64,000 nucleotides of DNA from Alkalispirochaeta sp. (lineage in GTDB: Bacteria; Spirochaetota; Spirochaetia; DSM-27196; Alkalispirochaetaceae). The notes below the pieces were generated by a model. It was not told the DNA's origin. It was given only the letters and a program-made list of their open reading frames with translations, and did not search any database. The translations under genes and the position numbers were made by a program. This document shows, one piece after another, positions 21,118 through 54,007 of the stretch. The stretch spans positions 2,976,001 through 3,040,000 of the forward strand of contig OZ271854.1 in the NCBI GenBank assembly GCA_965601925.1. The letters run 5' to 3'. Within the stretch, counting starts at the first letter, position 1. Each line of letters begins with the position of its first letter.

Positions 21118-21146
21118 TTGCGGACCGCCGTCGTCCCGCCTATCAT
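21118..21146 (+). promoter_or_regulatory. Sigma-70 promoter of vapBC, leaderless-type geometry
   Basis: TTGCGG-N17-TATCAT-N7-ATG. Confidence 0.55.
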
Positions 21147-21153
21147 TGAGTGT

Positions 21154-21396
21154 ATGAAAACCACCGTCGACATTCCCACGGCGTTGTATCGGCGGTCGCG
21201 GAGTATCGCCGCGGCGCGGGGCGTGAGTTTCCGCACCTTTCTTACCGAGGCGTTGCAGGAGAAAGTGCTTCACGGCGATATGCGCGCCTGGACCGATTCG
21301 TTCGGGGCCCTCTCCTCGGCCCACGACGCCCTCGCCGAGGTCGAGCGCGCCATTTCCTTCGTCCGTCGCCCGTCGAACGAGCCAGCCCGACTATGA
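21154..21396 (+). CDS. vapB: RHH-type antitoxin (VapB-like, 80 aa)
   Basis: MKTTVDIPTALYRR...AAARGVSFRTFLTEAL ribbon-helix-helix pattern. ATGA overlap with the PIN gene. Confidence 0.75.
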   Translation: MKTTVDIPTALYRRSRSIAAARGVSFRTFLTEALQEKVLHGDMRAWTDSFGALSSAHDALAEVERAISFVRRPSNEPARL

Positions 21397-21770
21397 TTCT
21401 CGACGCCGGGGCCGTATCGGCGATACTTCGAGGCGACGAATCCATCAAGCCGGTCGTCGAGACCGGGGCGATGCTCGCCATTCCCGTGATCGTGGTCGGC
21501 GAGTACCGCTACGCGCTGATCGATTCCTCCAAAGGGCGAGAGATCGAGCGCGCCTTGGATCGTCTCATACGATCTCTGCACGTTCTCACCGTGGACGAGC
21601 GCACCGCCGAGCACTACGCCGAAATCCGTCGACGGCTCATCGGACGGCCCCGTCCTCTGCCCGAGAACGGTATATGGATCGGCGCGCTCGCGCGTCAATA
21701 CGAACTGCCGATCCTCAGTCGCGAGACCTCCTTCGACGAGATTCCCAAGGTGCGGCGTATCGGTTGGTAG
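21393..21770 (+). CDS. vapC: PIN-domain toxin (VapC-like, 125 aa)
   Basis: MILD start, IPVIVVGEY, AEHYAEIRRRL..RPRPLPENGIWIGALARQY.LPILSR. Confidence 0.8.
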   Translation: MILDAGAVSAILRGDESIKPVVETGAMLAIPVIVVGEYRYALIDSSKGREIERALDRLIRSLHVLTVDERTAEHYAEIRRRLIGRPRPLPENGIWIGALARQYELPILSRETSFDEIPKVRRIGW

Positions 21771-24847: not shown

Positions 24848-24896
24848 ATCGTCCCTCCGTTGGGTGTGAGAATAGTAGTTGGTTCGTTGTAGTTGC

Positions 24897-24933
24897 AGGG
24901 TAGCGCCCATTTATAGATATGTCAATATCTATA
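24897..24933 (-). promoter_or_regulatory. Sigma-70 promoter of the reductase fusion with an overlapping palindromic operator
   Basis: TTGACA-N17-TACCCT on the minus strand. A perfect inverted repeat TATAGATAT-N4-ATATCTATA (24912-24933) is centred on the -35. Confidence 0.7.
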
Positions 24934-25116
24934 TAAAAAAAATTTTATTCTGGACGCGAGAGAGATCTTGTCGTCCGGAGCGAGGTGCGTGAATCCGTCG
25001 ACTCGTTGCCGGGTGGGAGCGCGCGACCGTCCACAAGGATATGCGGGCGTTCATCCGGCGGGTTTGTAGATGGGAGAGTTGTCAGCGCAAAATTGGGCGT
25101 GTTAAGATGGCGGCCA

Positions 25117-27009
25117 ATGAGCCGACCCAGTGCGCCGGCAACGCGGAGAGTGTGTTTCTTGGTCTTCCTCGCCGCAGCGTCATTACTCCCGGGACAACAG
25201 AATTACCAGAAGACCTATCCCTTGCGTTCGCCGGAGTACGAGGCGTTACGCACCCTCTATATCGAACAGGGTATCGCCCTTCCCTTTGCCACCGGGCCCT
25301 TCTCGGAAGCGGAACTCCGTCATGCCATGGACCGTCTCGATACTGCGCGCCTGTCTGAGGCGGGACGTACCACCTTCGACTGGTTGCGCGAACGGTTCGA
25401 GGTCGAGGGGGGCTATCGAGAGGAAGAGGGACGCTTTCGGTTTGAGGCCGGGGCGGAGTTCTCCCTGGAGACGTATCTTCACACGGATTCCGACAATCCG
25501 TATTGGGAGTACCGGTGGGAGGATCGCGAGCCCTTCGCCCGCTTCCCCCTCGAGGCGTGGGTCATGGATCACGGCTACGGGATCATGGATTTCTCATTTA
25601 TGAAGAACATTCCCGATTTCAGTATTTATCCGACCTACCAGAGGAGCGGGCAATACGGCTTTGACGAGAACGGGGATTTCGAGTATTCCACTGACGAGGA
25701 AAACCCGTGGAGCAACCTCCCTACGATTCCGAGCACCATTGACGTGCAGTTCCCGCATCGCGCGTTTATCTCCGTCGGCGGCGAGCGGTGGAACGCCCAA
25801 ATCGGACGCGACATCATCGACTGGGGAAACGGCCGCACCGGTAACTTGTACATATCGGATTACACCGACTGGCACGACGCGCTGCAACTCTCGACCTTCT
25901 GGGATCGCTTCAAGTTTTCTTGGATTTGGGTGAGTCTCGACGGGTCGCTCACCGGTGAAGAGCGCGAGTTCGAGACTCATCTTGTCGGGTGGGATACCGA
26001 TGGCGACGGGAGAGTCGACACCTACACCGACCCCGGCGATCCCGACTTCGTTGATTTGGACCCCACCGTCGCGGATCGACAAATCTATGCGTACGAGGCC
26101 GACGAGGAGCACAAGAATCTCATCGCGCACCGGTTCGAACTGCGACTGTGGAATCGCTTGGGCCTGTCATACACCGAGGGCATCATCTTCGGTCGCGAAC
26201 GGATCGAGTTGCGCCACCTTAACCCGGTCTACCACTACCACAGCTTGTATACCAATACGCAGAACGTCGGGAACTCTCACCGCAGTTTCGAGTTCGATCT
26301 CGCGCTCACCGCGGGCCTCAACCTCTACGGGGCGCTGACCCCCGACCAATGGTCGAGTCCTCTCGAGCCGGGGACGAGCACCCAGGAGGAGCCCAACGCC
26401 GTCGCCTATCTCTTGGGGCTCGATTGGCGACGCCCCCGCGGGCGTGGATATCTTAGCGGCACGCTGGAGCTGGTTTATATCACGCCGTGGATGTATATCC
26501 ACAATAGCCCGCTCACCAGCATCACCAACCGACGTTACGTCATGGCGGAACACGGTGACGATCGGACCCAAATCTGGATCGATCGCCCCCTCGGGCACTA
26601 CGGCGGTAACGACTACGCGCTGATCTGGCTCGATCTCTCGTATCACGAGGTCGGGCGCCATCGTTACGGACTCACGACCTACTACGAGGGAGACGGATCG
26701 GTACCGATAAACGCGCTCTTGGAGAGCACCGTGAGCGACGGACTCAGGGACTCCCTCTCGGAGGAGGAGGCGGAACTGACGGCGCCGTCGGACGGCTACG
26801 ACGGGCGAGCCGTGCAATGGCGTACCGCGGCGACCCTCTACGGCGAGGTCTGGCCGCGTCTCTTCGACGGTTTCAACGGCGATCCTGGGGGCCGTACGCT
26901 CCGTGTCGGGTCGCAGTTGTCGGCTCAGTGGATGAAAAATCGTTACAATCGAGTGGGCGACTGGGAGTTTGATGTACAATGGGTCGTCTCTACAACCATC
27001 GGATTTTGA
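25117..27009 (+). CDS. Outer-membrane beta-barrel protein, capsule-assembly Wzi-like (630 aa)
   Basis: Signal peptide, QIGRDIIDWGNGRTGNLYISD and AHRFELRL...LSYTEGII motifs, alternating aromatic strands, C-terminal Phe. Confidence 0.6.
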   Translation: MSRPSAPATRRVCFLVFLAAASLLPGQQNYQKTYPLRSPEYEALRTLYIEQGIALPFATGPFSEAELRHAMDRLDTARLSEAGRTTFDWLRERFEVEGGYREEEGRFRFEAGAEFSLETYLHTDSDNPYWEYRWEDREPFARFPLEAWVMDHGYGIMDFSFMKNIPDFSIYPTYQRSGQYGFDENGDFEYSTDEENPWSNLPTIPSTIDVQFPHRAFISVGGERWNAQIGRDIIDWGNGRTGNLYISDYTDWHDALQLSTFWDRFKFSWIWVSLDGSLTGEEREFETHLVGWDTDGDGRVDTYTDPGDPDFVDLDPTVADRQIYAYEADEEHKNLIAHRFELRLWNRLGLSYTEGIIFGRERIELRHLNPVYHYHSLYTNTQNVGNSHRSFEFDLALTAGLNLYGALTPDQWSSPLEPGTSTQEEPNAVAYLLGLDWRRPRGRGYLSGTLELVYITPWMYIHNSPLTSITNRRYVMAEHGDDRTQIWIDRPLGHYGGNDYALIWLDLSYHEVGRHRYGLTTYYEGDGSVPINALLESTVSDGLRDSLSEEEAELTAPSDGYDGRAVQWRTAATLYGEVWPRLFDGFNGDPGGRTLRVGSQLSAQWMKNRYNRVGDWEFDVQWVVSTTIGF

Positions 27010-27077
27010 GAGAAGAGGATTCTCATGAACAGACTTGATCGGGCTTCCGGCGGCACCGTAGAAAGTTCGGTGCGACG

Positions 27078-28277
27078 ATGAAAATAGCGATCGTATTCGA
27101 GATTTTCTATCCCACCGTCAACGGCATTATCACCTCGTCGGTCAATCTGGCCGAGAATCTCATCGATCGAGGGCACGAGGTGATCTTTATCGCACCTCGT
27201 TGGGAGGCATTTCGGGAACCGCTTATCAACGGCCGGATTCCCGTACGGTATATCCAGAGCCAAGACAACTGGGCCTATCCCGGTATGCGTAACGTCCTAC
27301 CGTGGAATCGTACCGTGGAGGTCATACTGCGTCGCGAAAAGGTAGATGCCATTCACATTACCGGCCCGTGGCTCATTACGTGGGCCTCGATCAGGGCGGC
27401 GAGGCGATTGGGCCTACCGGTGATTCATACCTTTCACACGATGCTCCACGAGCCGAGTTACATCATCTATATGTTTCGCGTGCGCTTGCTGGTGCCGGTC
27501 ATTCAGGCGCTTGCGTGGGGGTACTACTCCCTGTTCGTCAAGCGAAGTACGATCAATACCGGTCCCAGCAGAATGGCGTGTCGCCAGATGCTGCATCACT
27601 TTCCCGACGTCGATATGCGTTTCGTCTCCAACGGCGTCGACGTTGGCCGCTTCGATACGCACGCGACGCGCGAGATGCTGCGCCGTACCTATCCCCGGCA
27701 CAACGATCGCACCTTTATCTTCGTGGGGCGTCTCGGCCAGGAGAAGTCCGTCGACGAGCTCATCGACGCCATGGCGGTGGTGGCCGAACGCCGGGCGGAT
27801 GCGCAGCTCTTTATCGTCGGTGACGGTCCGTCGGCGCGACGCTATCAAGCTCAGGTGCACCGCCTCGGCCTGGAAAAGCACGTCTTTCTCCTGGGCCGTA
27901 TCGCCCACGCGGAGCTGATCGCGAGCGGTCTGATTCACCACGCCCTCGCGTTCGTGACCGCGAGCACCACCGAGAATCAGCCGATGACGGTGATCGAGGC
28001 GGTCTGTTGCAACGTCCCGGTCATCGTGCCGGACGTGCCCGGTATCACCGAGTTGGTAGAGGAGAACGGGGTGCGATTCGAGGCCCACAGCGTAGAGGCG
28101 TTGGCCGATGCGATGGTTCGGCTCATAGACGATGAGGAGCTCCGAGCGCGCTGCATCGAGGCGAGCGAAGGTATGAAGAATCGGTTCGACGGGCGAAACG
28201 TCGCCGGACAGTTCGAGTCGATCTACCGCGACGCCCTCGAGAGTACCTCGTCACGCCACACCGCCGGGCACGGATGA
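27078..28277 (+). CDS. GT4 glycosyltransferase, diacylglycerol glycosyltransferase-like
   Basis: MKIAIVFEIFYPTVNGIITS, IHTFHT, FVGRLGQEK and ASTTENQPMTVIEA (EX7E) match the pattern of monoglycosyl-DAG synthases. Confidence 0.8.
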   Translation: MKIAIVFEIFYPTVNGIITSSVNLAENLIDRGHEVIFIAPRWEAFREPLINGRIPVRYIQSQDNWAYPGMRNVLPWNRTVEVILRREKVDAIHITGPWLITWASIRAARRLGLPVIHTFHTMLHEPSYIIYMFRVRLLVPVIQALAWGYYSLFVKRSTINTGPSRMACRQMLHHFPDVDMRFVSNGVDVGRFDTHATREMLRRTYPRHNDRTFIFVGRLGQEKSVDELIDAMAVVAERRADAQLFIVGDGPSARRYQAQVHRLGLEKHVFLLGRIAHAELIASGLIHHALAFVTASTTENQPMTVIEAVCCNVPVIVPDVPGITELVEENGVRFEAHSVEALADAMVRLIDDEELRARCIEASEGMKNRFDGRNVAGQFESIYRDALESTSSRHTAGHG

Positions 28278-28391
28278 CGCATAACCCGGCCATAGCGCTC
28301 TTGCACAACGCTTCGCGGCTCGCCTACACTACCTGCAGTTGGCCTTCCCGTGTGACACCATCAGTGCTGTAGAGACAAGGAGTCTTCGAGC

Positions 28392-31300
28392 GTGTCTCAA
28401 TCGTATTATCTCGGAATCGACATTGGTTCTACGACGGTAAAAATCGCGTTGGTCGACCCCTCCGACCACCGTGTCATATATCATCGGTATCTTCGCCACG
28501 GCGCGCGTCAACGGCAAACCGTCGTTCGCCTCCTGGAGGAGTTGGACGGCGCCATGCCGGACGCGCAGATTCGCCCGTGCTTTACCGGGAGCGGCGCCCG
28601 CACAATCTCTCAAGGGATCGACCTCGGATATATCCAAGAGGTCGTCGCCAACAGCCTCGCGGTGCGGCGGTTTCATCCCGACGCTCGCGTCGCGATCGAA
28701 CTCGGCGGACAAGATGCCAAGGTCATCTTCTTCCACCCCGACCCGGCGACCGGAGAGCTTCGGGCCTCCGACATGCGGATGAACGGAAGTTGCGCCGGCG
28801 GAACGGGGTCGTTTATCGACGAGGTCGCCAAGTTACTGCAGACGCCGGTCGAACAGTTCGACGACTTGGCGGCGCGAGGGGAGCGACTCCACCAGATTTC
28901 CGGCCGTTGCGGCGTGTTTGCCAAGACGGATATCCAGCCGCTACTCAATCAGGGGGTCGATCGCAGTGAGTTGGCGCTATCGACCTTCCACGCCGTGGCG
29001 CGACAGACGATCGGCGGGTTGGCCCAGGGCCTGCGTATCGAGCCGCCGGTTATCTTTCAAGGCGGGCCGCTGACGTTCAACCACACCTTGGTATCGGTCT
29101 TTGCGGAGCGGTTGGGGCTGGAAAAGCATCAGATCATCCGGCCCGATCGACCCGAGATTTTCGTGGCCCACGGTGCGGCGATGTCGATTCCGTTGATCTT
29201 TCCCGACACACCTACGATGAGTGTCGAGGAGTTGACGCGTCGCATTGAGCGTTCCGCGCGCGGTACTACCGACCCTCACGCCCCGGAGGAGGCCGGGGGA
29301 CGGGAGACGACGGATCGTCTCGATGCAGCGATGTTTTTCGCCGACGCCACCGAACGGGAGGAGTTTGCCGCCCGTCATCGCCGTGCGCACTACGAGCGTG
29401 CGACGTACGCTCCCGGCACCCGCGTTCCCATCTACATCGGGATCGATGCCGGTTCGACCACGACCAAGATGGTCCTTCTCGATGAGCGCGGCGACCTCTT
29501 GGACTCCGCCTACGCCCACAACGAAGGCGACCCGTTGCGTACCGGTGCGCGCCTGTTGGGCGATCTGTTGGAGCGGTACGAGGCCGAAGGGGTCGAGATG
29601 CCGATTCTCGGACTGGGAACGACCGGTTACGGGGAGCGACTCTTTGCCGCCGCCTTCAAGGCCGACTACCACACCGTCGAGACGGTCGCCCACGCCCACG
29701 CCGCACTCCGGGTCGAGCCCGCCGCGAGCTTCGTCCTCGACATCGGCGGTCAGGACATGAAGGCGATTACCGTAACCGACGGTATCGTAACCGCCATCAG
29801 CCTCAATGAGGCGTGCTCCGCCGGGTGCGGATCGTTTCTGGAGAACTTTGCCGCCACCCTTCACGTTCCGGTCGAGGATATCGCCGAGATGGCCTTTGCC
29901 GCGACCTCTCCGAGTCGCCTCGGATCGCGCTGCACCGTCTTTATGAACTCCTCCATTATCACCGAGCAGAAAAACGGCAAGAGCCGCGAGGACATACTCG
30001 CGGGGCTGTGCCGTTCGATCGTGGAGAACGTCTTCACTAAGGTAGTGCGAGTTCCCAACTTCTCGGCGCTTGGCGATACGGTCGTCGTACAGGGCGGCAC
30101 GTTCGAGAACGACGCCGTATTGCGAGCGCTGGAACAGTACACCGACCGGCGGGTCGTCCGCGCGCCCTTTCCCGGGCTGATGGGTGCGATCGGCGTGGGG
30201 CTGCTCACTCGGGACGCCGTAGCGGCTCGACACGACGGGGATGAAACGCCGACGAGCGCCTTTGCCGGTCTCTCGGCCTTGCGCTCCTTCGACTTCGAAC
30301 AGGAGAGCGGGCTGGTATGTCCCTTTTGTGCCAATGCGTGCAATCGTACCGCCGTCCACTTCGCCGACGGGAGCCATTTCGTCACCGGCAATCGGTGTGA
30401 GCGGGGAGAGATTCTGCAACCGCCGGACGCCGAGGCGGGGCGCGAGCGGCTGCGTGCAATCGGACGGCGGCGCGGTGCGGTGCCCAACCTCATGGAAGAG
30501 CGCGCGTCACTCCTCAATGCCCGTCCCAGCGTCGAGACGTTACGAGAGAACGAAACGCGCACGATAGGGATTCCCCGGGCCCTGGAGTTTTGGCACAGCC
30601 TTCCGTTCTGGCGAGCCTTCTGGACCGCGCTGGGATTCAAGGTTGCGGTATCGGCCGAGAGCAGCCGAGAGCTTTTTGAGCGCGGCCTTCCCTCCGTGCC
30701 CTCCGATACGGTCTGTTTTCCCGCCAAACTGAGCCACGGACACCTTCTCGACCTGCTCGATCGCGGCGTGGACCGGATCTTCATGCCGATGATCAACCGG
30801 ATGCCGCCGGAAAACGGCTCGACGACGAGCAACCATGTGTGCGCGGTCGTCAAGGGGTATCCGATGGTGCTCGAGGTGAGCGACGAACCGACGACCCGGC
30901 ACGGCGTGCCCTTCGATCGTCCTATGTTCCACTGGCTCGACGCACGGTCGAGAAAACGGCAGATCGAGCGCTGGGTGCACGGCGAGTTCGGTATCGAATC
31001 GGCCACCGTGCGCCGCGCCATAGCGATCGGTGACGACGCCCAACGCCGTTTCGAAGAAGCGCTGCGTCGCCGCGGCGCCGAAGTACTGGCCGAGCTGGAC
31101 GGAACCGACCGATTCGCGGTGGTCATCGCCGGGAGACCGTACCATAGCGACCGACTCGTCAACCACGATCTCGCCTCGTTTTTCGTCGAGCAGGACATAC
31201 CGGTACTCACCGTCGACAGCCTTCCCGGGCTCAACGACTCCGACCTCGGCGCCACCCGCGCCGAGTTGACGATCAACTTTCACGTACGGATGTACGGCGC

Positions 31301-32849
31301 CGCGGTTCAGACCTCGGCGCACCCGAACCTGGAGCTGGTCCAAGTGGTCAGCTTCGGCTGCGGCCACGACGCGGTGATCTCCGACGAGGTGGTGCGACTC
31401 ATGGAGGAGAGCTCCTCCAAGACGCCGCTGACCCTCAAGCTCGACGAGACCGATGTGCAGGGGCCGCTCGCGATTCGCATCCGTTCCTTCATCGAGACGG
31501 TGAGAAGCCGACGCGAACGGATCGCGCGGGCTCGAGACGCCGAGGACGGGCCGGTGGACGGCGGGTTCGCGTATGGAATCGAACGCTACGAACCGGCCGA
31601 CCCCTTTCCGGTGAAGTATCGCAAGGAACACCGCAAGGAGAAGGTCATCCTCGCACCGAACGTGAGCCGCTCCTTCGCACAGGTCATCACGGCGGCGATC
31701 CGGGCGGAGGGGTACCGCATCGAACCGTTGCCGATGGCCGATCGGCGTGCGATAGAGCTCGGCAAGCGTTACGTTCACAACGACATGTGCTTTCCCGCCC
31801 AGGTGAACGTCGGTGAGACGCTGCGAGCGCTGGAGTTGGGCGTCGTCGATCCCGATATCGCCGTCTGCGGGCTCGCGAAGAGCCAGTGCGACTGTAGACT
31901 TGCACACTATGCGAGCCTCGCGCGCCGCGCCCTCGACGACGCGGGCTATCGGCAGGTACCGATCATTACCACCGATCAGGACACCAAAAACATGCATCCC
32001 GGCTTCTCGTTGGGACCCTTGTTCCAGTTGCGGATGCTGTGGGCCCTGGCGATCATCGACGCTTTGGAGGATCTGCGTCTGAGACTCAGGCCGTACGAGC
32101 GTGAGCAAGGGAGTATCAATCGCGCCTTCGAGGCCGGGACGGAGGCTGTCGCCGCAGCCTTGGAACATTCGATCCGCAAAGCCGTCGCCGCGTACCGCCG
32201 GGCCGTCGATGCACTCTCGGCCGTGCCGCTCCGGGAGGTTCCCGACCGGCCCAAGGTCTTCGTGATCGGAGAGTTCCTGCTCAACTTTCATCCGACGAGC
32301 AACTTCGACATTGTGAACTACTTAGAGGCCAACGGCATGGAGGTGATTCTCCCCAACATTCTCGACTCCTTTCGGCGCGACTTCATGCGCATGAAGACCG
32401 AGCGCAAGGAGTTTTTCATCCGTTACCCGTTGGCCGACACGGTACTCGCCGGCATCACCGATACACTGTTCGACCACGTTTTGGACAAGGTCGCCTCGAT
32501 AGCCGAGACAAATCCGCGGTATGAGCGCCGCGTTCCCCTACCGGAAATTGCGAAGTATTCCGAGGAGATCGTGCACCATACCTTCACCTCCGGAGAGGGG
32601 TGGTTGATCGCCGGTGAGATTCTCCACCACGCGGCCCACGGCGTGCGATCCTTTCTCATTTTGCAGCCCTTCGGGTGTCTGCCCAACCATGTGACCGGGC
32701 GCGGTCTCGTGAAACGGTTCAAGGAGATCCATCCCGATGCGCAGATTCTGAGTCTCGACTACGATCCCGACACGAGTTTCGCCAATATCGAAAATCGTCT
32801 GCAAATGCTTATTTTGAACAGCCGCCTCGGCTCCGGCGTCACGCCGTAG
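28392..32849 (+). CDS. plsA: PlsA/PlsR-type fused activator-reductase (2x BadF/BcrAD ASKHA ATPase + DUF2229 + 2-hydroxyacyl-CoA dehydratase-like domains), putative anaerobic plasmalogen synthase
   Basis: GIDIGSTT...ELGGQDAK...CAGGTG...RCGVF, then GIDAGSTT...DIGGQD...CSAGCG...RCTVF, then CPFCANAC, GNRCE, TVCFPAK, SFGCGHD, NDMCFPA, GEGWL, QPFGCLPNH. AAGGAG SD and TTGCAC-N18-TACACT promoter. The function is inferred from architecture. Confidence 0.75.
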   Translation: MSQSYYLGIDIGSTTVKIALVDPSDHRVIYHRYLRHGARQRQTVVRLLEELDGAMPDAQIRPCFTGSGARTISQGIDLGYIQEVVANSLAVRRFHPDARVAIELGGQDAKVIFFHPDPATGELRASDMRMNGSCAGGTGSFIDEVAKLLQTPVEQFDDLAARGERLHQISGRCGVFAKTDIQPLLNQGVDRSELALSTFHAVARQTIGGLAQGLRIEPPVIFQGGPLTFNHTLVSVFAERLGLEKHQIIRPDRPEIFVAHGAAMSIPLIFPDTPTMSVEELTRRIERSARGTTDPHAPEEAGGRETTDRLDAAMFFADATEREEFAARHRRAHYERATYAPGTRVPIYIGIDAGSTTTKMVLLDERGDLLDSAYAHNEGDPLRTGARLLGDLLERYEAEGVEMPILGLGTTGYGERLFAAAFKADYHTVETVAHAHAALRVEPAASFVLDIGGQDMKAITVTDGIVTAISLNEACSAGCGSFLENFAATLHVPVEDIAEMAFAATSPSRLGSRCTVFMNSSIITEQKNGKSREDILAGLCRSIVENVFTKVVRVPNFSALGDTVVVQGGTFENDAVLRALEQYTDRRVVRAPFPGLMGAIGVGLLTRDAVAARHDGDETPTSAFAGLSALRSFDFEQESGLVCPFCANACNRTAVHFADGSHFVTGNRCERGEILQPPDAEAGRERLRAIGRRRGAVPNLMEERASLLNARPSVETLRENETRTIGIPRALEFWHSLPFWRAFWTALGFKVAVSAESSRELFERGLPSVPSDTVCFPAKLSHGHLLDLLDRGVDRIFMPMINRMPPENGSTTSNHVCAVVKGYPMVLEVSDEPTTRHGVPFDRPMFHWLDARSRKRQIERWVHGEFGIESATVRRAIAIGDDAQRRFEEALRRRGAEVLAELDGTDRFAVVIAGRPYHSDRLVNHDLASFFVEQDIPVLTVDSLPGLNDSDLGATRAELTINFHVRMYGAAVQTSAHPNLELVQVVSFGCGHDAVISDEVVRLMEESSSKTPLTLKLDETDVQGPLAIRIRSFIETVRSRRERIARARDAEDGPVDGGFAYGIERYEPADPFPVKYRKEHRKEKVILAPNVSRSFAQVITAAIRAEGYRIEPLPMADRRAIELGKRYVHNDMCFPAQVNVGETLRALELGVVDPDIAVCGLAKSQCDCRLAHYASLARRALDDAGYRQVPIITTDQDTKNMHPGFSLGPLFQLRMLWALAIIDALEDLRLRLRPYEREQGSINRAFEAGTEAVAAALEHSIRKAVAAYRRAVDALSAVPLREVPDRPKVFVIGEFLLNFHPTSNFDIVNYLEANGMEVILPNILDSFRRDFMRMKTERKEFFIRYPLADTVLAGITDTLFDHVLDKVASIAETNPRYERRVPLPEIAKYSEEIVHHTFTSGEGWLIAGEILHHAAHGVRSFLILQPFGCLPNHVTGRGLVKRFKEIHPDAQILSLDYDPDTSFANIENRLQMLILNSRLGSGVTP

Positions 32850-32928
32850 TCTCTGTCAAACAGGCGTCTGCGTCGTGTGTCACGGTGCCGCCGTCGGTGA
32901 ATGCGTCGCCCCCCTCTACGGGAAGCGG

Positions 32929-32957
32929 TTGCCGTCACGCGTCCCGAGCGCTACACT
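32929..32957 (+). promoter_or_regulatory. Sigma-70 promoter of pgmB-ALDH, leaderless-type geometry
   Basis: TTGCCG-N17-TACACT-N7-ATG. Confidence 0.55.
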
Positions 32958-32964
32958 GCCTTGC

Positions 32965-33618
32965 ATGAAGGCCGTACTATTCGATCTCGACGGCGTCGTC
33001 GTCTACACCGACGCCTATCACTATCGAGCGTGGAAGCGTCTCGCGGATGAGGAAGGATGGCGTTTCGACGAGACGCAGAACGATCGGCTGCGAGGTGTCT
33101 CGCGCCTCGCTTCGCTGCAGATCATCCTCGATCTCAACGGCGTCGAGCTTACGCCGGAGCGCAAAGAGGAGCTCGCTACGCGCAAGAACGAGTATTACAA
33201 GGCGCTCCTCGAAACGATCGACGAGACGGCCCTCGTGCCCGGTGCACTCGATTTTATCCGCGCCCTTCGCCGCGAGAGTATTCTGATCGGCCTGGGTAGC
33301 AGCAGCCGCAACGCTCAGATGGTCCTGGACAAGCTCGGTATCGCGGATCTCTTCGACGCAACGGTCACCGGTCACGATATCAAACGCTCCAAGCCCGATC
33401 CCGAGATATTTCTCCTCGGGGCGCGCACGTTGGGTGTAGAGCCCGCCGAGTGCGTCGTCTTCGAGGATGCGCCGAGCGGTGTCGAGGCGGCCTTGGCCGG
33501 CGGTATGATCGCCGTCGGCTTCGGACCTACCGAGGGGCTGGACGCCGCCGATATCCTCGTCGCCTCCTACGACGGACTCGATTACGCCGAGTTTCTGCGC
33601 CGTCTCGACGCGCGTTGA
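32965..33618 (+). CDS. pgmB: Beta-phosphoglucomutase
   Basis: FDLDGV..T..YHYRAWK, LRGVSR..SL, SSSRNA, SKPDPEIF, VFEDA. Confidence 0.9.
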   Translation: MKAVLFDLDGVVVYTDAYHYRAWKRLADEEGWRFDETQNDRLRGVSRLASLQIILDLNGVELTPERKEELATRKNEYYKALLETIDETALVPGALDFIRALRRESILIGLGSSSRNAQMVLDKLGIADLFDATVTGHDIKRSKPDPEIFLLGARTLGVEPAECVVFEDAPSGVEAALAGGMIAVGFGPTEGLDAADILVASYDGLDYAEFLRRLDAR

Positions 33619-33641
33619 CTTCCCCGCCGAGGAGGTGTTTC

Positions 33642-35051
33642 ATGGCCGATACCGCTGCCGCGCCGACGGTAGATATCGACGCGTTGGTCGAACGACAACG
33701 CACCTTTTTTCGCAGTGCCGCGACGCTGCCCCGCGCTTATCGCCTCGGTGCGCTCTCCACCCTCGCGGCGGCGATCGAGTCTCGAGAGGACGCGATCACC
33801 GATGCGCTGAAGAGCGACCTGGGAAAGGGCGCGTTCGAGGCGTACACCAGCGAGATCGCGCTTCTTTACGAGGAGATCCGTCTCGCGAGAAGGAGTCTGC
33901 GCCGCTGGATGCGTACCGAGCGCGTCTCGACACCGATCGTTCACGCGCCGGGGCGAAGTCGCATTATCCGTCGCCCCCGCGGCGTCTCGGCGGTGTTGAG
34001 CCCGTGGAACTATCCGTTTCAACTCGCCCTTGCGCCGGTCGTCGCCTCGATCGCCGCGGGCAACTGCACCATTCTCAAGCCTTCGGAGTTCGCTCCGGCT
34101 ACCTCGCGGGTCATTGCACGGATGATTCGAGAGCACTTCGACGAGGCGTATCTGGCGTGTGTGGAGGGTGCCGGTGCGCTCGCCGCCCGCCTCACCGCCG
34201 CGGAAGTGGACCACATTTTTTACACCGGAAGCACGCGCATCGGCCGTATCGTCATGCGCACCGCCGCAGAACGTCTCGTGCCGGTATCCCTTGAGCTCGG
34301 CGGCAAGTCGCCGGCAATTGTGAGTTCGACGGCGCGTATCGATGTAGCGGCGCGCAGGGTCATGTGGGGCAAGGTGTTGAACGCCGGACAGACGTGCGTC
34401 GCCCCCGACTACGTGTGCGTCCACCGAACGGTACTCGATGCGTTTCTCGACGGCCTTTCGGCGGCGTTGCACGCCTTTTACCCGAAAGGGCCGGCCGGGA
34501 CCACCGACTACGGACGCATCGTGAACGAGGCCCACTTCGACCGCCTCTCCCAACTTATGGATCGCCAGGCCGATCGGGTGAGCGCCGGAATCGGCGGGAC
34601 GAGAGATCGCGACGAGCGCTATATCGCGCCCACCGTCTACGCACCGGTCGCGTGGGACGATCCCATCATGGAAGACGAGATTTTCGGACCTCTGTTGCCC
34701 GTCATAGTCTACGACGACTTCGAGCGACTGATAGAGACGATCGCGGTACGTCCGACGCCGTTGGCGGCGTATATGTTCAGTGAGGATCGCGCCGAGATAC
34801 GACGCTTCGAGCGCCGGCTACCCTTCGGGGGCGCGACGATTAACGATACGGTGGTGCACCTGACCAATCCCAAGCTCCCGTTCGGAGGGAGCGGTCCGAG
34901 CGGCATGGGAAGTTACCACGGCGTGGCCGGTTTTCGCGAGTTCAGCCATACTGCCGCGGTTCTAAGACGCTCCTCGCGCTTCGACGTGCCGCTCAAATAT
35001 CCGCCCTACGGAGACTCTCTCAAGCTGGTTCGCCGTTTGATGAAGCCGTAA
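33642..35051 (+). CDS. Aldehyde dehydrogenase (ALDH3 / fatty-aldehyde dehydrogenase-like)
   Basis: PWNYPFQL, FYTGS, LELGGKSP, NAGQTCVAPDY, EIFGPLLP, PFGGSG.SGMG.YHG, C-terminal YPPY. GGAGG SD. Confidence 0.9.
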   Translation: MADTAAAPTVDIDALVERQRTFFRSAATLPRAYRLGALSTLAAAIESREDAITDALKSDLGKGAFEAYTSEIALLYEEIRLARRSLRRWMRTERVSTPIVHAPGRSRIIRRPRGVSAVLSPWNYPFQLALAPVVASIAAGNCTILKPSEFAPATSRVIARMIREHFDEAYLACVEGAGALAARLTAAEVDHIFYTGSTRIGRIVMRTAAERLVPVSLELGGKSPAIVSSTARIDVAARRVMWGKVLNAGQTCVAPDYVCVHRTVLDAFLDGLSAALHAFYPKGPAGTTDYGRIVNEAHFDRLSQLMDRQADRVSAGIGGTRDRDERYIAPTVYAPVAWDDPIMEDEIFGPLLPVIVYDDFERLIETIAVRPTPLAAYMFSEDRAEIRRFERRLPFGGATINDTVVHLTNPKLPFGGSGPSGMGSYHGVAGFREFSHTAAVLRRSSRFDVPLKYPPYGDSLKLVRRLMKP

Positions 35052-36081
35052 CGGGGTGGGAGGAGTCTTCCACGCGGGCGCGCTCGATGAGCCGGAGTGC
35101 CGACCGAGCGTCGGCGGTGGCGTAGAGTCGTTCGAGAAGTGCCCGACCCGCTGCGTGATGAACCGGGACGTAGTTGCGATAGAACTTCTTCAAAACCTCG
35201 TAGTTGCGCGTCTTACCCCACCTCATCGTATAGCGCTCAATGTGTTCGGCCGCCATCGACAGACGCGTATCCCAATCGACCTCGGCCCACGCCGCCAGGC
35301 CGGGCGTCACGTCGCGGACAAAGAGCCACGGATCGCGGAATATGCCGCGTCCGACCATGACGCCGTCGATTCCCGTTTGCTCGATGAGCCGTCGGGCGTG
35401 GGAGAGACTTCGCACATCGCCGTTGCCGAGGATCACCGTTTCGGGCGCGAGCTCGTCTCGCAGCAGAACGACGCGCGCCATTTCCCTCCAATCGGCCCAA
35501 CCGTCGGACATTTGCGTCGCCGTGCGCGGATGCACCGTAAGCGCGTCCGGACGTTGGTCGAGCAGAAAGGCGCACCACTGCTCGGTACGGCGATGCTCGA
35601 CGCCGATGCGCGTCTTGACGCTTACCGGTAGCGAGCCGCCCTCGCGACACGCGTGGATGATCTCCGCCGCCAGCGGCGGATCGTCGATCAATGCGGCGCC
35701 GGAGCGCGCTTTTCTGATTTTGCGTACCGGGCATCCCATGTTGATATCGACACCGTCGAAACCCACCGTCTCCAGCGCCGAGGCGGCGCGAAGGAACTCT
35801 TCGGGACGAGTCCCCCACAGTTGGGCGATCAGCGGTCTCTCGTCTTCGGTGAACTGAAGTCGTCCGTTGATCGGCCGCCCGGCAGCCCGATCGTCTACGG
35901 CGCGAAACGCCGCGTCCACCCGCGTAAACTCGGTAAACATCACCGCGGGGCCGCGACTCGCGTCACCGGAGACGCGTAACGACCACAGCCGTACCAAGTG
36001 TCGAAACACCGTGTCGGTGACGTCTTCCATCGGTGCCAGTGAGAATATCGGTTTGGGAAGCTCTTTCCATACGTTGCACAC
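35020..36081 (-). CDS. dus: tRNA-dihydrouridine synthase
   Basis: LAPMEDVTD, AQLWG, DINMGCP, SVKTRIG, LTVHPRT, GNGDV, GVMVGRG. Promoter TTGGAA-N17-TATGAT-N8-GTG. Confidence 0.9.
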   Translation of the reverse strand: MCNVWKELPKPIFSLAPMEDVTDTVFRHLVRLWSLRVSGDASRGPAVMFTEFTRVDAAFRAVDDRAAGRPINGRLQFTEDERPLIAQLWGTRPEEFLRAASALETVGFDGVDINMGCPVRKIRKARSGAALIDDPPLAAEIIHACREGGSLPVSVKTRIGVEHRRTEQWCAFLLDQRPDALTVHPRTATQMSDGWADWREMARVVLLRDELAPETVILGNGDVRSLSHARRLIEQTGIDGVMVGRGIFRDPWLFVRDVTPGLAAWAEVDWDTRLSMAAEHIERYTMRWGKTRNYEVLKKFYRNYVPVHHAAGRALLERLYATADARSALRLIERARVEDSSHPVTASSNGEPA

Positions 36082-49073: not shown

Positions 49074-49547
49074 GTGGCTCATAAGATTACTCTCACGGTC
49101 CCGGACGGCATATACCTCAAGATCGAACGGTGGAGATCGGCTTTCAACCTCTCTCGGGTCTTTCAGGAAGCGATCGAAGAGGCGATCGAACGGAAAGAGG
49201 AGTTTCAGAAGCGACTCGCCCAGGATGTGAGCCTCGCCGATGTCGTCCGCCGGTTGCGCCGAGAGAAGCGAAACTACGAACGGAAGACGTTTCGTAAGGC
49301 GGAGGAGGAGGGGCGTAGGTGGGCCTCTCACGCCCACTACGAGGACTTGGTTGTGATCGCCGGCACTCCCGTTGAGGAGATCGCCGACAATCAAACCGTT
49401 CAGATTCACGTTGCCGATGCGGTCCGCCGGCTTTCGTCGGACCACGAGCGCACCTTTCGTTCTCGTGACGCCTTCCGCGAGACGGTCGTTACCGGCTGGC
49501 ACGCGGGCGTTCGCGCCCTTTGGTCCGCCGTGGAGGATCGGTTATGA
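49074..49547 (+). CDS. Putative RHH/CcdA-like DNA-binding protein with a helical C-terminal domain (157 aa)
   Basis: KITLTVPD..Y.KI.......NLSRVFQEAI ribbon-helix-helix pattern. GGAGG SD and ATGA overlap with the next gene. Confidence 0.65.
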   Translation: MAHKITLTVPDGIYLKIERWRSAFNLSRVFQEAIEEAIERKEEFQKRLAQDVSLADVVRRLRREKRNYERKTFRKAEEEGRRWASHAHYEDLVVIAGTPVEEIADNQTVQIHVADAVRRLSSDHERTFRSRDAFRETVVTGWHAGVRALWSAVEDRL

Positions 49548-52500
49548 GTGCCGCCGGCGCCGTTCTGGGAGTCGACGTCGGTTCCGTGGCGCTCTCCGCC
49601 GTGGTTTTGGAGCGCGACGGGACGATTCGCGGTCGCCACTATGCAATCCACGAGGGCGACATCGGTAACGCCCTCAACGGTATGGAGCGGTGTCTGGATC
49701 TCTCCGACGTCACGGCGTGCGCCCTGACCGGTCGCGCCTCGCACAAGATTCAACACGACTACTTCGCCGATTCGCGCCTGGCGTGCATTCGTTCGGTCAA
49801 AGAACGTTATCCCGAAGTGCGCTCGATGCTTCTGGTCGGCGGTGAGTTTTTTTCTCTCATCCGTTTGGACGCTGAGGGGCGCTACGAGAGCGTACGGACG
49901 AACACCTCCTGCGCCGCAGGGACCGGTAGCTTTCTCGACCAACAGGCGGGCCGCCTAAACATGGCCGACAGCGCCGAGTTGAGCGCCACTGCGTTGGGCA
50001 ATACCGATCCCGTTCCTCCGGTGGCTACGCGCTGCGCGGTGTTCGCCAAGACCGATCTTATCCACGCCCAGCAGGAGGGCTACTCCCTCTCCGGCATCGC
50101 CGAGGGGCTGTGCGTGGGATTGGCGCGTAATCTGGTGGATACGCTCTTTAAGGACGCCGACATGGACGGACCGGTGCTCCTCACCGGCGGCGTTGCGCGA
50201 AACGAGGCGGTTGCTCGTCACATCGATGCGTTGGTGCCGCAGCGTATCGTCGTAGACGCCGACGGCCCGTTTCAGGGAGCGATCGGCGCGGCGTTATCCT
50301 TCCTGGACGAACGGAGCGACGGCGCCGTGACGGACGGGGTCGTCGGTACGGCCGCGTTCGACGTCGTCGATACTCACCGGGAAGAACCGTCGCGTCCGAC
50401 TCTGTCGACCGCGGCGGTCGGCTGCGAGCGTGTAACGGAACGCCACGATCACGGAGCGGTCGATCATCCCGGGAGCGCGGCCGATGTATCCGACGGTTCA
50501 GCGACGCCGTGTTCCGTTGCGGCCTTTCGTGCTCGCAGGCCGGATCGAGGCGGGTTCTATCCGCCGCTCACCCTTCGGTACTCCGACTATCCCTCGTTCG
50601 CCGCCTACAAGCGTTACGAACAGACTATAGAGGGACGGCCCGGGCAACCCTTTGTAGAGGTCGATCTCTATCGTCCGTGGGCGGAGTCGCTGGACGCCTA
50701 CCTCGGTGTAGACATCGGCTCCACGAGCACCAAAGCGGTCGTTACCGACCTACACGGCGAGGTCCTGGGCGGCTTCTACACGCGCACCGCCGGGCGGCCT
50801 CTATCCGCGGCGCAGGCGCTCTTTGATGCGATCGATGCGGCCGCCGGTGCGGAGCAATGCACGCTTGCGATTCACGGAAGTGCGACCACCGGGTCGGGGC
50901 GCAAGTTCATCGGTGAGATCATCCATGCCGACGAGGTTCTGGACGAGATCAGCGCCCACGCCCGCGCGGCGTGCGCGTTGGACCCGCGGGTCGATACGAT
51001 CTTGGAGATCGGCGGCCAGGACGCGAAGTTTACCACCCTCAAACACGGTCGCGTCACCTTGTCGGTGATGAACAACGTCTGCGCCGCCGGGACCGGCAGC
51101 TTCCTGGAAGAGCAGGCCAAACGTCTGGGTGTAGCGGTTCGCGACTATGCGCGGTATACCGCCGATATCCGCGCTCCACGGGTGAGCGACCGTTGTACGG
51201 TGTTCATGGAGCGTGATATCAACCATCTCCTCTCCGAGGGGCATACCGTGCCGGAAGTTCTGGCGGCGGCGCTCCATGCGGTACGCGAGAACTATCTGCA
51301 CAAGGTCGCGGTGGAGAAGAACATCGGTGAGGTGGTCTTTTTTCAGGGTGCCACCGCCAAAAACCGCTCTCTGGTAGCCGCGTTCGAACAGAGATTGAAT
51401 CGCCCCATCCTCGTGTCTCCCTACTGCCACCTCACCGGCGCCCTGGGTGCGGCTCTCACACTCGTCGATCGCGGTGTCGTTTCGACCGAGTTCGCGGGGC
51501 TTGATCTCCACCGCACGTCGATACCGGTCGGGCGCGAGGTCTGTCGGCTATGTGCCAACCATTGCAAACTCTCGGTGGTGGAGGTCGATGGTCGGACCGT
51601 CGCTTTCGGATTTCTCTGCGGGCGGGATTACCGGACCGAGCGGTACGTCGATCGCAATACGAGCGGTTTCGACCTTCTTACGGCGCGGCGCAATGTGGAG
51701 CGCACGCTTCAGGGAAACGTCTCGTCGGAGCCGATTGAAGAAAAGACGCTCGGCGCCGGTGCTGCCTCTCCCACGATCGGCCTTCCCGACGGCCTCTTCA
51801 TGACGGAGGATCTCGCCTACTGGCAGGTGTTCTTCCGCGTACTGGGCATCACTACCAAGACCGGTCGCGGGTTGAAGAATCCGATTCAGCGGGGTAAGCC
51901 GCTGGTGGGTGCCGAGTTCTGTGCGCCGATGTCGGCGCTCCACGGCCGGGCGGCGGCGCTCCTGGAGGAGGTCGATTATCTCTTTCTCCCGACCTACCTC
52001 GAACGCAAGCCGGAGAAGAGCGGCGCGTTGCGTAAGTTCTGCTACTTCTCGCAGTTTGCCGCGTCGTTGATCCGTTACATCGGCGACGACAAGCGCGTTC
52101 TTACGCCGCTCGCAGCCACACGCTATTCGTCCTTTCACCTCGTCGGTGAGCTCCACAAGACGCTGGGTGTGCTCGCCGACCGCCGGCCTACCATCTTGAA
52201 GATCTCGGCCGCCTTGGAAAAAGCGGACGCCTTCCGTCGCAGTCTGACGCGGTCGTTTAAAGAGCTGTATCGCGAGTATATGACCGCCGCGGATACCGTT
52301 GATGTCGTACTACTCGGCCGACCCTACTCGGTGCTGCCGAAAGAGATGAACAAAGGGATTCCCGACATTTTTTCTTCCCTCGGCGTGCGCGTCTTTTACC
52401 AAGACATGATCGACTACGAGCCGCACGATGTGGCCGCGATCGAGCCGCTTCTGCGGGAGATCAACTGGGCGTACGGCGCAAAGATTCTGGAAGCGGCGGA

Positions 52501-54007
52501 GGTTGCGGCTCGGACACCGGGACTGTATCCCGTTTTCCTAACCTCGTTCAAATGCGGTCCCGACTCCTTCATTACCGAGTACGTGAGGCGTATATTGGAC
52601 GCCCACGACAAACCGTATTTGATTCTTGAACTGGACGAGCACGATTCGGCGGTGGGATACGAGACGCGCATCGAAGCTGCGATCCGTTCGTTTCGCAATC
52701 ACATCGAGGAGGGCTCCGGGACGCGATGCGTGTCGGTTGACGGATCGAACTATCGGGGCGTTAATCCGCGCTACGTTCGCGAGCTCACGAGGGACAAGAC
52801 GCTCATTATTCCCAATTGGGACGATTACTCGATCCCTCTGATCGCCGCCGTATTGAACGGCCAGGGATACCGGACGCTCATCATGGAGGAGACCGACGAG
52901 ACCATTCGCCGGAGCCTGAGATGGAACAATGGGCAGTGCATTCCAATGAACGCTCTGGTGGAGGGGTGCGTGGCCACTATCAGGAGCCACATGGTTCAGC
53001 CGGAACGGTGCCTCCTCTGGATACCGATGGCCGCCTTTTCGTGCAACATTCGCCTCTTTCCCCACCACGTGCAGGAGATCCTCAAAGGATACGGTGATGG
53101 AATGGACAAGGTCGGCGTATATCTCGGCGACATGACCTATACCGACCTTTCGCCGGTCGTCACCGCCAACGCCTATCTGGCCTACATGTTCTCCGGCCTC
53201 ATCCGACGGATCGCCTGTCGCATTCGACCGTACGAGCACCACCCCGGAGAAACGGACGAAGTGGTACGGGAGGCGTTGGAAGTATTGAGCGGGGCGTTTC
53301 GGGACGCGGGCGGAAACAAGACGCAGGCGGTGCGAGACATCATGGATCGGTTCGAGCGTATTCCGTACGACCGCGATCGAGAACGGCCCAAGGTAGCTCT
53401 TTTCGGCGACATTTACGTCCGCGACAATCCCGTTATGAACCAGGACGTAATTCGCTATATCGAACGGAACGGCGGGGAGGTCGTTACCATGCCGTTCCAC
53501 GAGTTCACTCGCATGACCGCGAATACGTACTTTTACCGCTGGTTTCGAGAGCGGCGACTCGGGCGCCTTCTGACGTTGAAACCCCTCATGGCGGGGCTGG
53601 CTGCGATGGAGAAATGGTACTACCGTCACTTCGAGCGAGTGATTCGGGAGCCGGCTCCGCAATTTGAGGATGATCCGGCCGAAGTTCTGGGGAGATTCGG
53701 TGTGAGTATCGACCACGAGGGAGAGTCGCAGGACAATCTGCTCAAGACGTGGTACATCAGTCGACAGCACCCCGACCTGTCGCTCTTCGTCCAGCTCAAT
53801 CCGGGATTTTGCTGCGCCGGCCTGGTAACCGAGGCGATGTCAAAGAAGATTCGTGAGGTTACCGGTGTCCCGGTCCTCCCGATCACCTACGACGGTACCG
53901 GCGGCCTCAAAAACGACGCGATCCTGCCTTACTTGAGGTATCCCAGGGACGTCAAGGAGCAACGTGTCTCACCGGAAAAGCGGTCGGACACGTTACGGGT
54001 CGGCTAA
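49544..54007 (+). CDS. Second PlsA/Ger-like fused activator-reductase (1487 aa)
   Basis: GVDVGS...CAAGTGSFLDQQ...RCAVFAKTD, then GVDIGSTSTK...EIGGQDAK...CAAGTG...RCTVF, then CRLCANHC, GFLCG, EFCAP, FKCGPD, GQCIP, FCCAG, YDG. Confidence 0.75.
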   Translation: MSAAGAVLGVDVGSVALSAVVLERDGTIRGRHYAIHEGDIGNALNGMERCLDLSDVTACALTGRASHKIQHDYFADSRLACIRSVKERYPEVRSMLLVGGEFFSLIRLDAEGRYESVRTNTSCAAGTGSFLDQQAGRLNMADSAELSATALGNTDPVPPVATRCAVFAKTDLIHAQQEGYSLSGIAEGLCVGLARNLVDTLFKDADMDGPVLLTGGVARNEAVARHIDALVPQRIVVDADGPFQGAIGAALSFLDERSDGAVTDGVVGTAAFDVVDTHREEPSRPTLSTAAVGCERVTERHDHGAVDHPGSAADVSDGSATPCSVAAFRARRPDRGGFYPPLTLRYSDYPSFAAYKRYEQTIEGRPGQPFVEVDLYRPWAESLDAYLGVDIGSTSTKAVVTDLHGEVLGGFYTRTAGRPLSAAQALFDAIDAAAGAEQCTLAIHGSATTGSGRKFIGEIIHADEVLDEISAHARAACALDPRVDTILEIGGQDAKFTTLKHGRVTLSVMNNVCAAGTGSFLEEQAKRLGVAVRDYARYTADIRAPRVSDRCTVFMERDINHLLSEGHTVPEVLAAALHAVRENYLHKVAVEKNIGEVVFFQGATAKNRSLVAAFEQRLNRPILVSPYCHLTGALGAALTLVDRGVVSTEFAGLDLHRTSIPVGREVCRLCANHCKLSVVEVDGRTVAFGFLCGRDYRTERYVDRNTSGFDLLTARRNVERTLQGNVSSEPIEEKTLGAGAASPTIGLPDGLFMTEDLAYWQVFFRVLGITTKTGRGLKNPIQRGKPLVGAEFCAPMSALHGRAAALLEEVDYLFLPTYLERKPEKSGALRKFCYFSQFAASLIRYIGDDKRVLTPLAATRYSSFHLVGELHKTLGVLADRRPTILKISAALEKADAFRRSLTRSFKELYREYMTAADTVDVVLLGRPYSVLPKEMNKGIPDIFSSLGVRVFYQDMIDYEPHDVAAIEPLLREINWAYGAKILEAAEVAARTPGLYPVFLTSFKCGPDSFITEYVRRILDAHDKPYLILELDEHDSAVGYETRIEAAIRSFRNHIEEGSGTRCVSVDGSNYRGVNPRYVRELTRDKTLIIPNWDDYSIPLIAAVLNGQGYRTLIMEETDETIRRSLRWNNGQCIPMNALVEGCVATIRSHMVQPERCLLWIPMAAFSCNIRLFPHHVQEILKGYGDGMDKVGVYLGDMTYTDLSPVVTANAYLAYMFSGLIRRIACRIRPYEHHPGETDEVVREALEVLSGAFRDAGGNKTQAVRDIMDRFERIPYDRDRERPKVALFGDIYVRDNPVMNQDVIRYIERNGGEVVTMPFHEFTRMTANTYFYRWFRERRLGRLLTLKPLMAGLAAMEKWYYRHFERVIREPAPQFEDDPAEVLGRFGVSIDHEGESQDNLLKTWYISRQHPDLSLFVQLNPGFCCAGLVTEAMSKKIREVTGVPVLPITYDGTGGLKNDAILPYLRYPRDVKEQRVSPEKRSDTLRVG

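Follow-up and report, generated by a model that had tools for sequence, protein, structure and literature searches.

A predicted vinyl-ether-forming enzyme of Alkalispirochaeta from a sister clade of validated PlsA, loosely linked to a GT4 glycosyltransferase

The closest described relatives of the locus analysed here are two anaerobic lipid-modifying systems. PlsA(-PlsR) comprises CPE1195/CPE1194 in C. perfringens and a single-chain PlsA in E. faecalis, L. cremoris and B. longum (PMC12838417), and the available parts of two further sources describe the family chemistry as ATP-driven electron transfer from activators to Fe-S sites, followed by reduction and dehydration at the sn-1 ester of an already completed lipid (PMC8788747, PMC9702350). 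Ger, represented by T. maritima Tmari_0479 and D. alkenivorans SHJ90043, likewise carries out anaerobic ester-to-ether chemistry and has a core of two activator domains plus DUF2229 (two PF01869 matches and PF09989), but its products are saturated alkyl ethers; homologues in Spirochaetes are noted in the same source (PMC13159169). Here we analyse a 64,000-nucleotide stretch of Alkalispirochaeta sp. (GCA_965601925.1, contig OZ271854.1, positions 2,976,001 to 3,040,000), referred to as the window, and in particular the 1485-residue protein A encoded in it. The PlsA/Ger family is already known, and the locus is no new kind of system. We propose that protein A, a fused protein dependent on Fe-S clusters, belongs to this family in a clade sister to validated PlsA, and that it rather probably converts sn-1 acyl esters into vinyl ethers under anoxia.

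The domain architecture of protein A is that of the PlsA/Ger family. A sequence-only reading of the window had described a protein with two activator and reductase/dehydratase domains, and profile searches bear this out, with two PF01869 matches and PF09989, and with TIGR00241 above cut-off. Two BcrAD_BadFG activator domains are followed by DUF2229 and by two HAD/BCR-fold domains with conserved Fe-S cysteines, the same single-chain Act1-Act2-Red1-Red2 layout as in PlsA. Protein A retains all 11 family-invariant cysteines; the conserved Fe-S cysteines present in it are C134, C173, C475, C514, C643, C646, C650, C669, C775, C817, C990, C1133, C1168 and C1429, of which C134 and C173 fall in alignment columns that two partial sequences do not cover. 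An AlphaFold model of residues 700–1485, built from 41 sequences, reached a pLDDT of 91. Its best fold matches are BzdNO, DCCP and 2-hydroxyisocaproyl-CoA dehydratase, which confirms the reductase/dehydratase domains, and the activator domains match HgdC (1hux, E 1e-31). However, HgdC-HgdAB and BzdNOPQ consist of separate subunits and use soluble CoA esters as substrates, and identity to protein A in the catalytic part is 11–14%. No solved PlsA structure was found by sequence or fold search, and the named close homologues of protein A come from Alkalispirochaeta and other spirochaetes.

As validated reference we utilised the open reading frame that matches both E. faecalis plsA cloning primers of PMC12838417 and the stated length of 4,248 bp. 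Protein A is colinear with this PlsA over ~1480 residues at 35.4% identity. The source genome (one contig, 96.7% complete) holds three PF09989 genes, encoding A, a second protein of the window, B, and a paralogue C (C1:502323-506696, minus strand). Trees of 66 and 42 proteins were built with FastTree and with IQ-TREE in quick mode (LG+G4, SH-aLRT only); they comprise proteins of at least 1250 residues, plus three PlsA-only halves in the first tree, contain no Ger sequence and have their root set by assumption on the B, D and E types. One clade (support 100) unites A and C with proteins of Fibrobacter, Lachnospiraceae, Coriobacteriia, Haliovirga and many spirochaetes, with C, 46.6% identical to A, in a basal position. 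E. faecalis PlsA falls in the sister group of this A clade (support 99–100), and the B, D and E types lie apart from the pair (support 100). Protein B, 25% identical to A, is outside this pair. A TetR-like gene, its family assigned by eye, stands upstream of C, as reported for E. faecalis plsA.

Both FastTree and IQ-TREE place protein A outside the E. faecalis PlsA clade, and its identity to the reference is below the roughly 50% of canonical members, which are 51–54% identical among themselves (54% to E. faecalis PlsA for a Listeria protein, 51% for one Collinsella protein). The sequence-only reading had identified protein A as a PlsA-type synthase and had named a position outside the PlsA clade as grounds for giving this up; in a narrow sense that is the position found, that of a sister group. 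Membership of the PlsA/Ger family stands, as does a closer kinship with validated PlsA than the other subtypes of the genome have, whereas orthology with validated PlsA does not. Many residues found in both protein A and PlsA, Cys479 among them, do not occur in the B, D and E types, while Cys1350 of E. faecalis PlsA is replaced by Ile in 39/39 A-clade proteins. Judged by sequence, the A clade is a widespread sister group of the known anaerobic plasmalogen synthases.

Several genomes contain both clades. Collinsella aerofaciens, including ATCC 25986, holds canonical and A-clade genes, and a Mediterraneibacter metagenome-assembled genome has one of each within 6 kb, convergent and ~1 kb apart. 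This coexistence indicates that the A and canonical PlsA clades are old paralogues. Both full-length family genes of C. aerofaciens have a TetR neighbour (L003, L110, L148/G328). Two spirochaete families (f12 and f31) hold PlsA-side genes instead (L088–L094), ~52% or 45% identical to the first 850 residues of the E. faecalis protein, so both clades are present in Spirochaetota. Pfam micro-architecture was discarded as a discriminator of PlsA from Ger, as the published BBDH/BBDHDDH codes were not reproduced at a loose threshold; weak HGD-D matches at this threshold were limited to E. faecalis PlsA, B and one B-type protein.

The likely product of the A clade is indicated by Fibrobacter. Exactly one PF09989 gene was found in 51/51 genomes of the genus searched, and in 30/30 loci fetched the protein is 45–48% identical to A versus 33–36% to E. 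faecalis PlsA. In 4/4 genomes tested, the two activator domains of this gene are the sole PF01869 matches. These genomes are mutual kin. Plasmenylethanolamine is given as a major lipid of Bacteroides succinogenes, which is Fibrobacter succinogenes, in the available part of the Goldfine review (PMC9702350). The A clade is thus the sole family candidate in a classic plasmalogen producer, and it is not confined to glycolipids. For the plasmalogen synthesis claimed by the sequence-only reading, this indirect evidence favours vinyl-ether formation, with the position of A outside the validated clade on the other side, and we consider a vinyl-ether product of protein A distinctly probable. Among related free-living spirochaetes, dimethylacetals amount to ~18% in S. 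africana and S. dissipatitropha and to 0.8% in Salinispira pacifica (PMC4511686).

On the model of PlsA and the HAD/BCR family, the activator domains of protein A, two in number, would hydrolyse ATP and thereby drive low-potential electrons via the CxxCxxxC-C linker site to both reductase/dehydratase domains with their clusters. The latter domains would reduce and dehydrate the sn-1 acyl ester of a finished membrane lipid, yielding a vinyl ether.

Several points weigh against this reading. The overall identity of protein A to E. faecalis PlsA is only 35%, and it drops to 29% in the PlsR-like part. According to the available part of a 2026 study, PlsA and Ger are not yet separable by primary sequence (PMC13274423). 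The Fibrobacter argument ties lipid data of 1963, taken second-hand, to present genomes, among which the type strain was not identified. With three paralogues in the genome, native plasmalogens alone would not point to A. Finally, our literature search found no study separating or testing the A clade, although Jackson 2021 and the tree files of the Ger paper may include such sequences, and it found no plsA study of a spirochaete or of Fibrobacter.

The gene for protein A lies in a run of genes on the plus strand. The four open reading frames on which the sequence-only reading was based, encoding a family 4 glycosyltransferase (GT4), protein A, PgmB and an aldehyde dehydrogenase (ALDH), lie where it had placed them, all on this strand. 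The features of the locus, in window positions, are:

24985..27009, plus strand: upstream open reading frame of 674 aa, no Pfam match; the true start is probably later
27078..28277, plus strand: GT4 glycosyltransferase "GT4a", 399 aa; GT4 Pfam matches, and a best but sub-threshold match to alpha-monoglucosyl-diacylglycerol synthase
28301..28330, plus strand: promoter-like TTGCAC-18-TACACT before protein A; similar motifs in relatives
28377-28382, plus strand: AAGGAG ahead of protein A
28392..32849, plus strand: protein A, 1485 aa, fused Act1-Act2-CxxCxxxC-Red1-Red2, PlsA/Ger family by profiles, trees, cysteines and fold
32929..32957, plus strand: promoter-like TTGCCG-17-TACACT, 7 nt before the pgmB ATG; recurs in relatives
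32965..33618, plus strand: beta-phosphoglucomutase PgmB, 217 aa from the ATG; TIGR01990 above cut-off
33642..35051, plus strand: class-3-like ALDH, 469 aa from an ATG behind GAGGAGG; profiles and class-3 ALDHs in the PDB
35020..36081, minus strand: tRNA-dihydrouridine synthase (dus), convergent; Pfam match, same gene order across the taxonomic family
49520..54007, plus strand: protein B, second PlsA/Ger-family protein of the window by architecture and trees

GT4a had been credited with monoglycosyl-diacylglycerol-synthase motifs. Its best NCBIfam match is indeed the Mgs equivalog NF049988 over the full length, but at 111.6 bits versus a cut-off of 400, with BshA following at 101.7, so that the family resemblance holds and is weak. 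The motifs have diverged: GT4a reads FEIFYPTVNGIITS and ENQPMTVIE, compared with FTDTYRPEINGVVTS and ETQGLVLLE in the related GT4b. A GT4 search against plasmids gave no named characterised relative above 33%. Nevertheless, GT4a is the best Mgs candidate of the genome, the next best reaching 43.8 bits, and no GT28 monogalactosyldiacylglycerol synthase was matched there. A major glycolipid is reported for the source genus (PMC13286283). On these comparisons the acceptor would, on balance, be diacylglycerol (DAG), an assignment we hold somewhat less firmly than the vinyl-ether product of protein A.

The GT4 neighbourhood of the A-clade gene recurs across the order, which supports this part of the sequence-only reading. 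Synteny was counted by tblastn, with a GT4 or pgmB match within 1.5 kb, and an ALDH match within 3 kb, of the A-clade gene. A GT4 adjoins the A-clade gene in 7/12 loci of the taxonomic family (6/8 with both flanks assembled) and in 12/22 loci of other families of the order (5/11 with both flanks); three loci (L200, L201 and L203) had been fetched for their GT4 match, and without them the counts are 6/11 and 10/20. No GT4 neighbour was found in ten B, D or canonical loci within the order (0/10) or in nine canonical or E loci (0/9). The GT4 gene occurs in at least four arrangements: upstream of the A-clade gene, in the same direction or divergently, and downstream of it, convergently or in the same direction. 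Two GT4 subfamilies only 26–29% alike are involved, the second scoring 169–193 bits on the Mgs model versus 110–115 for the type of the window. Recurrence beside A-clade genes, the empty in-order controls, the Mgs match and the glycolipid of the genus together favour a loose functional link between the GT4 and protein A, within one order only. It is loose in that it is order-restricted, the genes have separate promoters and each occurs without the other. Our literature search found no report of a GT4-plsA link or of a plsA-glycosyltransferase operon. The sources available to us record plasmenyl glycolipids from Gram-positives and from Collinsella. Alk-1-enyl glycolipids of spirochaetes belonged to the background of the sequence-only reading, and our literature search returned no match for them. 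With GT4a glycosylating DAG, plasmenyl glycolipids would be a plausible product of the source lineage, a possibility to which we give slightly less than an even chance.

The best-surviving alternative is that the adjacency is leftover gene order, with GT4a and a Wzi-like protein acting on a surface glycan or another acceptor instead of DAG. In three relatives (G003, G013 and G008) the upstream Wzi-like gene ends no more than 10 bp before the GT4 start, and in the window the upstream 674-residue open reading frame and GT4a likely share a transcript, to judge from their arrangement. The Wzi-like outer-membrane identity is itself only a lead: Atlas clusters the protein at 0.98, and PF14052 is found on 13% of members in one cluster set. 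GT4a moreover occurs without A in at least seven genomes of the taxonomic family, where pgmB and dus follow it directly. Its Mgs score is far under the cut-off (110–115 bits for its type), and one orthologue is closer to BshA. Outside the order the link nearly vanishes, with a GT4 absent in 11/11 loci from other spirochaete orders and in 75/76 named A-clade loci, the sole positive being a spirochaete. What speaks for a functional link instead is that the adjacency survives inversions and involves two divergent GT4 subfamilies, the second more Mgs-like, that the genome offers no better Mgs candidate and no GT28 substitute, and that the genus has a major glycolipid. We therefore regard leftover order as a minority explanation, though a serious one; it is compatible with protein A being a plasmalogen synthase. 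Within the window, an 18-codon open reading frame with its own purine-rich site (27026-27081) overlaps the GT4 start by ATGA, and the spacer holding it is missing in the relatives, where the upstream gene stops no more than 10 bp from GT4. Elsewhere in the order, other families have distant Wzi-like homologues (27–35%) recurring close to GT4 and A-clade genes (L057, L064, L076, L197, L207).

A further possibility is a Ger-type protein A, which would take the reduction of the ester all the way to a saturated alkyl ether or would yield a mixture. The shared two-activator and DUF2229 core, the inseparability of PlsA and Ger by sequence and the position of A outside the validated PlsA clade all allow for this, and different products would explain why Collinsella and Mediterraneibacter retain both clades. 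However, Fibrobacter has the A clade only, yet plasmenylethanolamine is reported from it, and the many residues common to A and PlsA, including Cys479, are missing in the B, D and E types. A Ger-type protein A is therefore unlikely. Protein B is a candidate for a Ger-like alkyl-ether enzyme. The sequence-only reading did not mention protein B, which has the same architecture in the same window. The gene lies just upstream of genes reading as glgC and a DEAD/DEAH helicase, and B-type orthologues (43–63%) in genomes of the taxonomic family do not keep these neighbours.

The sequence-only reading had gone further and joined GT4, protein A and ALDH in a single unit that would make the glycolipid, form the vinyl ether and recycle the fatty aldehyde released. 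The identity of the ALDH holds: its closest solved relatives are class-3 ALDHs (PDB, E down to 1e-125), a class that includes fatty aldehyde dehydrogenase, and it carries the PWNYP, ELGGKS, GQTC and EIFGP motifs; no strongly hydrophobic segment was found in it. The order GT4-A-pgmB-ALDH is present in 5/12 loci of the taxonomic family, from three genera. In contrast, no ALDH adjoins the A-clade gene in the other order loci (0/22), the phylum loci (0/11) or the named loci (0/76). Among 70 genomes of the order, a class-3 ALDH occurs in 21/35 with an A-clade gene versus 20/35 without, and it is present in 12/20 order genomes that lack any PlsA-family match. The source genome gave no match to a YhhN lysoplasmalogenase. 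Three of the seven plsA-less loci keep the ALDH (G008, G013, G015), and no match to A at all was found in G008 (96% complete) and G015 (88%). This GT4-pgmB-(ALDH)-dus order without plsA indicates that no obligate module unites the four genes. The dus gene shows the same local synteny, a sign of background gene order, and a separate conserved promoter stands before pgmB. The coupling with aldehyde recycling thus fails, and the full module is very unlikely. A carotenoid role of the ALDH is a lead only: the genome has one SQS_PSY gene, distant and outside any evident carotenoid cluster.

The separate promoters seen earlier before plsA and pgmB are borne out by comparison. Both motifs are present, with similar ones at the same places in relatives; a generic sigma70 scan missed both, and conservation analysis recovered them. 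A motif like that of protein A lies 59–70 nt upstream in four relatives, and some promoter motif lies within 200 nt upstream of A in 10/17 loci versus a background of 4%. The pgmB motif stands 6–7 nt before the aligned start in 7/15 relatives and within 40 nt in 13/15, whereas the background for a motif 5–8 nt before a given position is 0.08%; it is present also where plsA is absent. Its spacing suggests that the pgmB transcript is likely leaderless, and pgmB and ALDH likely form a separate co-transcribed unit kept by gene order at the level of the taxonomic family. PgmB meets the beta-phosphoglucomutase profile (231.7 bits versus a TIGR01990 cut-off of 189.4) and has the DxDGV motif. Two GH65 phosphorylase genes lie elsewhere in the source genome, and PgmB likely serves them, as far as gene content indicates. 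A supply of UDP-glucose by PgmB was considered and rejected, since beta-glucose 1-phosphate is not a usual substrate of UDP-glucose pyrophosphorylase and the two GH65 genes explain pgmB. Beside the A-clade gene, pgmB was found in 8/12 loci of the taxonomic family, in 0/22 other order loci and nowhere else. Both pgmB and ALDH stand outside any ether-lipid module. In one other genus (g2; L045, L046; G017, G019) the pgmB slot holds a divergent HAD protein with 35% identity, and ~900 bp of inserted DNA follow the A-clade gene.

Action of protein A on soluble acyl-CoA or another non-membrane substrate, as a "CoA activase" annotation would have it, is the least probable alternative: the protein shares its fold with CoA-ester dehydratases and reductases, and no transmembrane segment was found in it, but the colinear full-length homology with validated PlsA, the single copy in every Fibrobacter genome searched and the recurring lipid-type GT4 neighbours speak against it.

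Further features lie around the locus. Divergent from it, an 861-residue fusion of CoA-disulfide-reductase-like, rhodanese, TusA and DsrE domains (22325-24910, minus strand) stays nearby in some relatives. A small antitoxin-like open reading frame followed by a PIN-like one (21118-21770, plus strand), called by eye, is a likely toxin-antitoxin pair. In another genome, the A orthologue (G016:C26:54996-59087, L044) has stops inside the match and a partial GT4 match; it is possibly decaying, or the assembly is in error.

The A clade also bears on Collinsella. In C. aerofaciens, a TLR2-active lipid derives from a plasmenyl galactolipid that has been credited to one open reading frame, according to the available part of the source (PMC10080676); the A-clade gene is a second, unremarked copy in this species. 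One may speculate that two ancient plasmalogen-synthase clades split the work by head group, the second having been recruited repeatedly beside DAG glycosyltransferases for plasmenyl glycolipids in the spirochaete order and, in Coriobacteriia with both clades, making the vinyl-ether galactolipid behind the Collinsella immunogen, with protein B as a third, Ger-like alkyl-ether enzyme; taken as a whole, we consider this scheme improbable. PlsA and Ger are not yet assignable by sequence, and a frame open to testing comes from dividing the family into the validated PlsA clade, its sister clade and the deeper B, D and E types. Within this frame, Fibrobacter, one of the earliest bacteria from which plasmalogens were described, has no candidate other than the A clade, and the three divergent paralogues and linked glycosyltransferase of a single Alkalispirochaeta genome would allow specificity for product and head group to be tested in E. 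coli.

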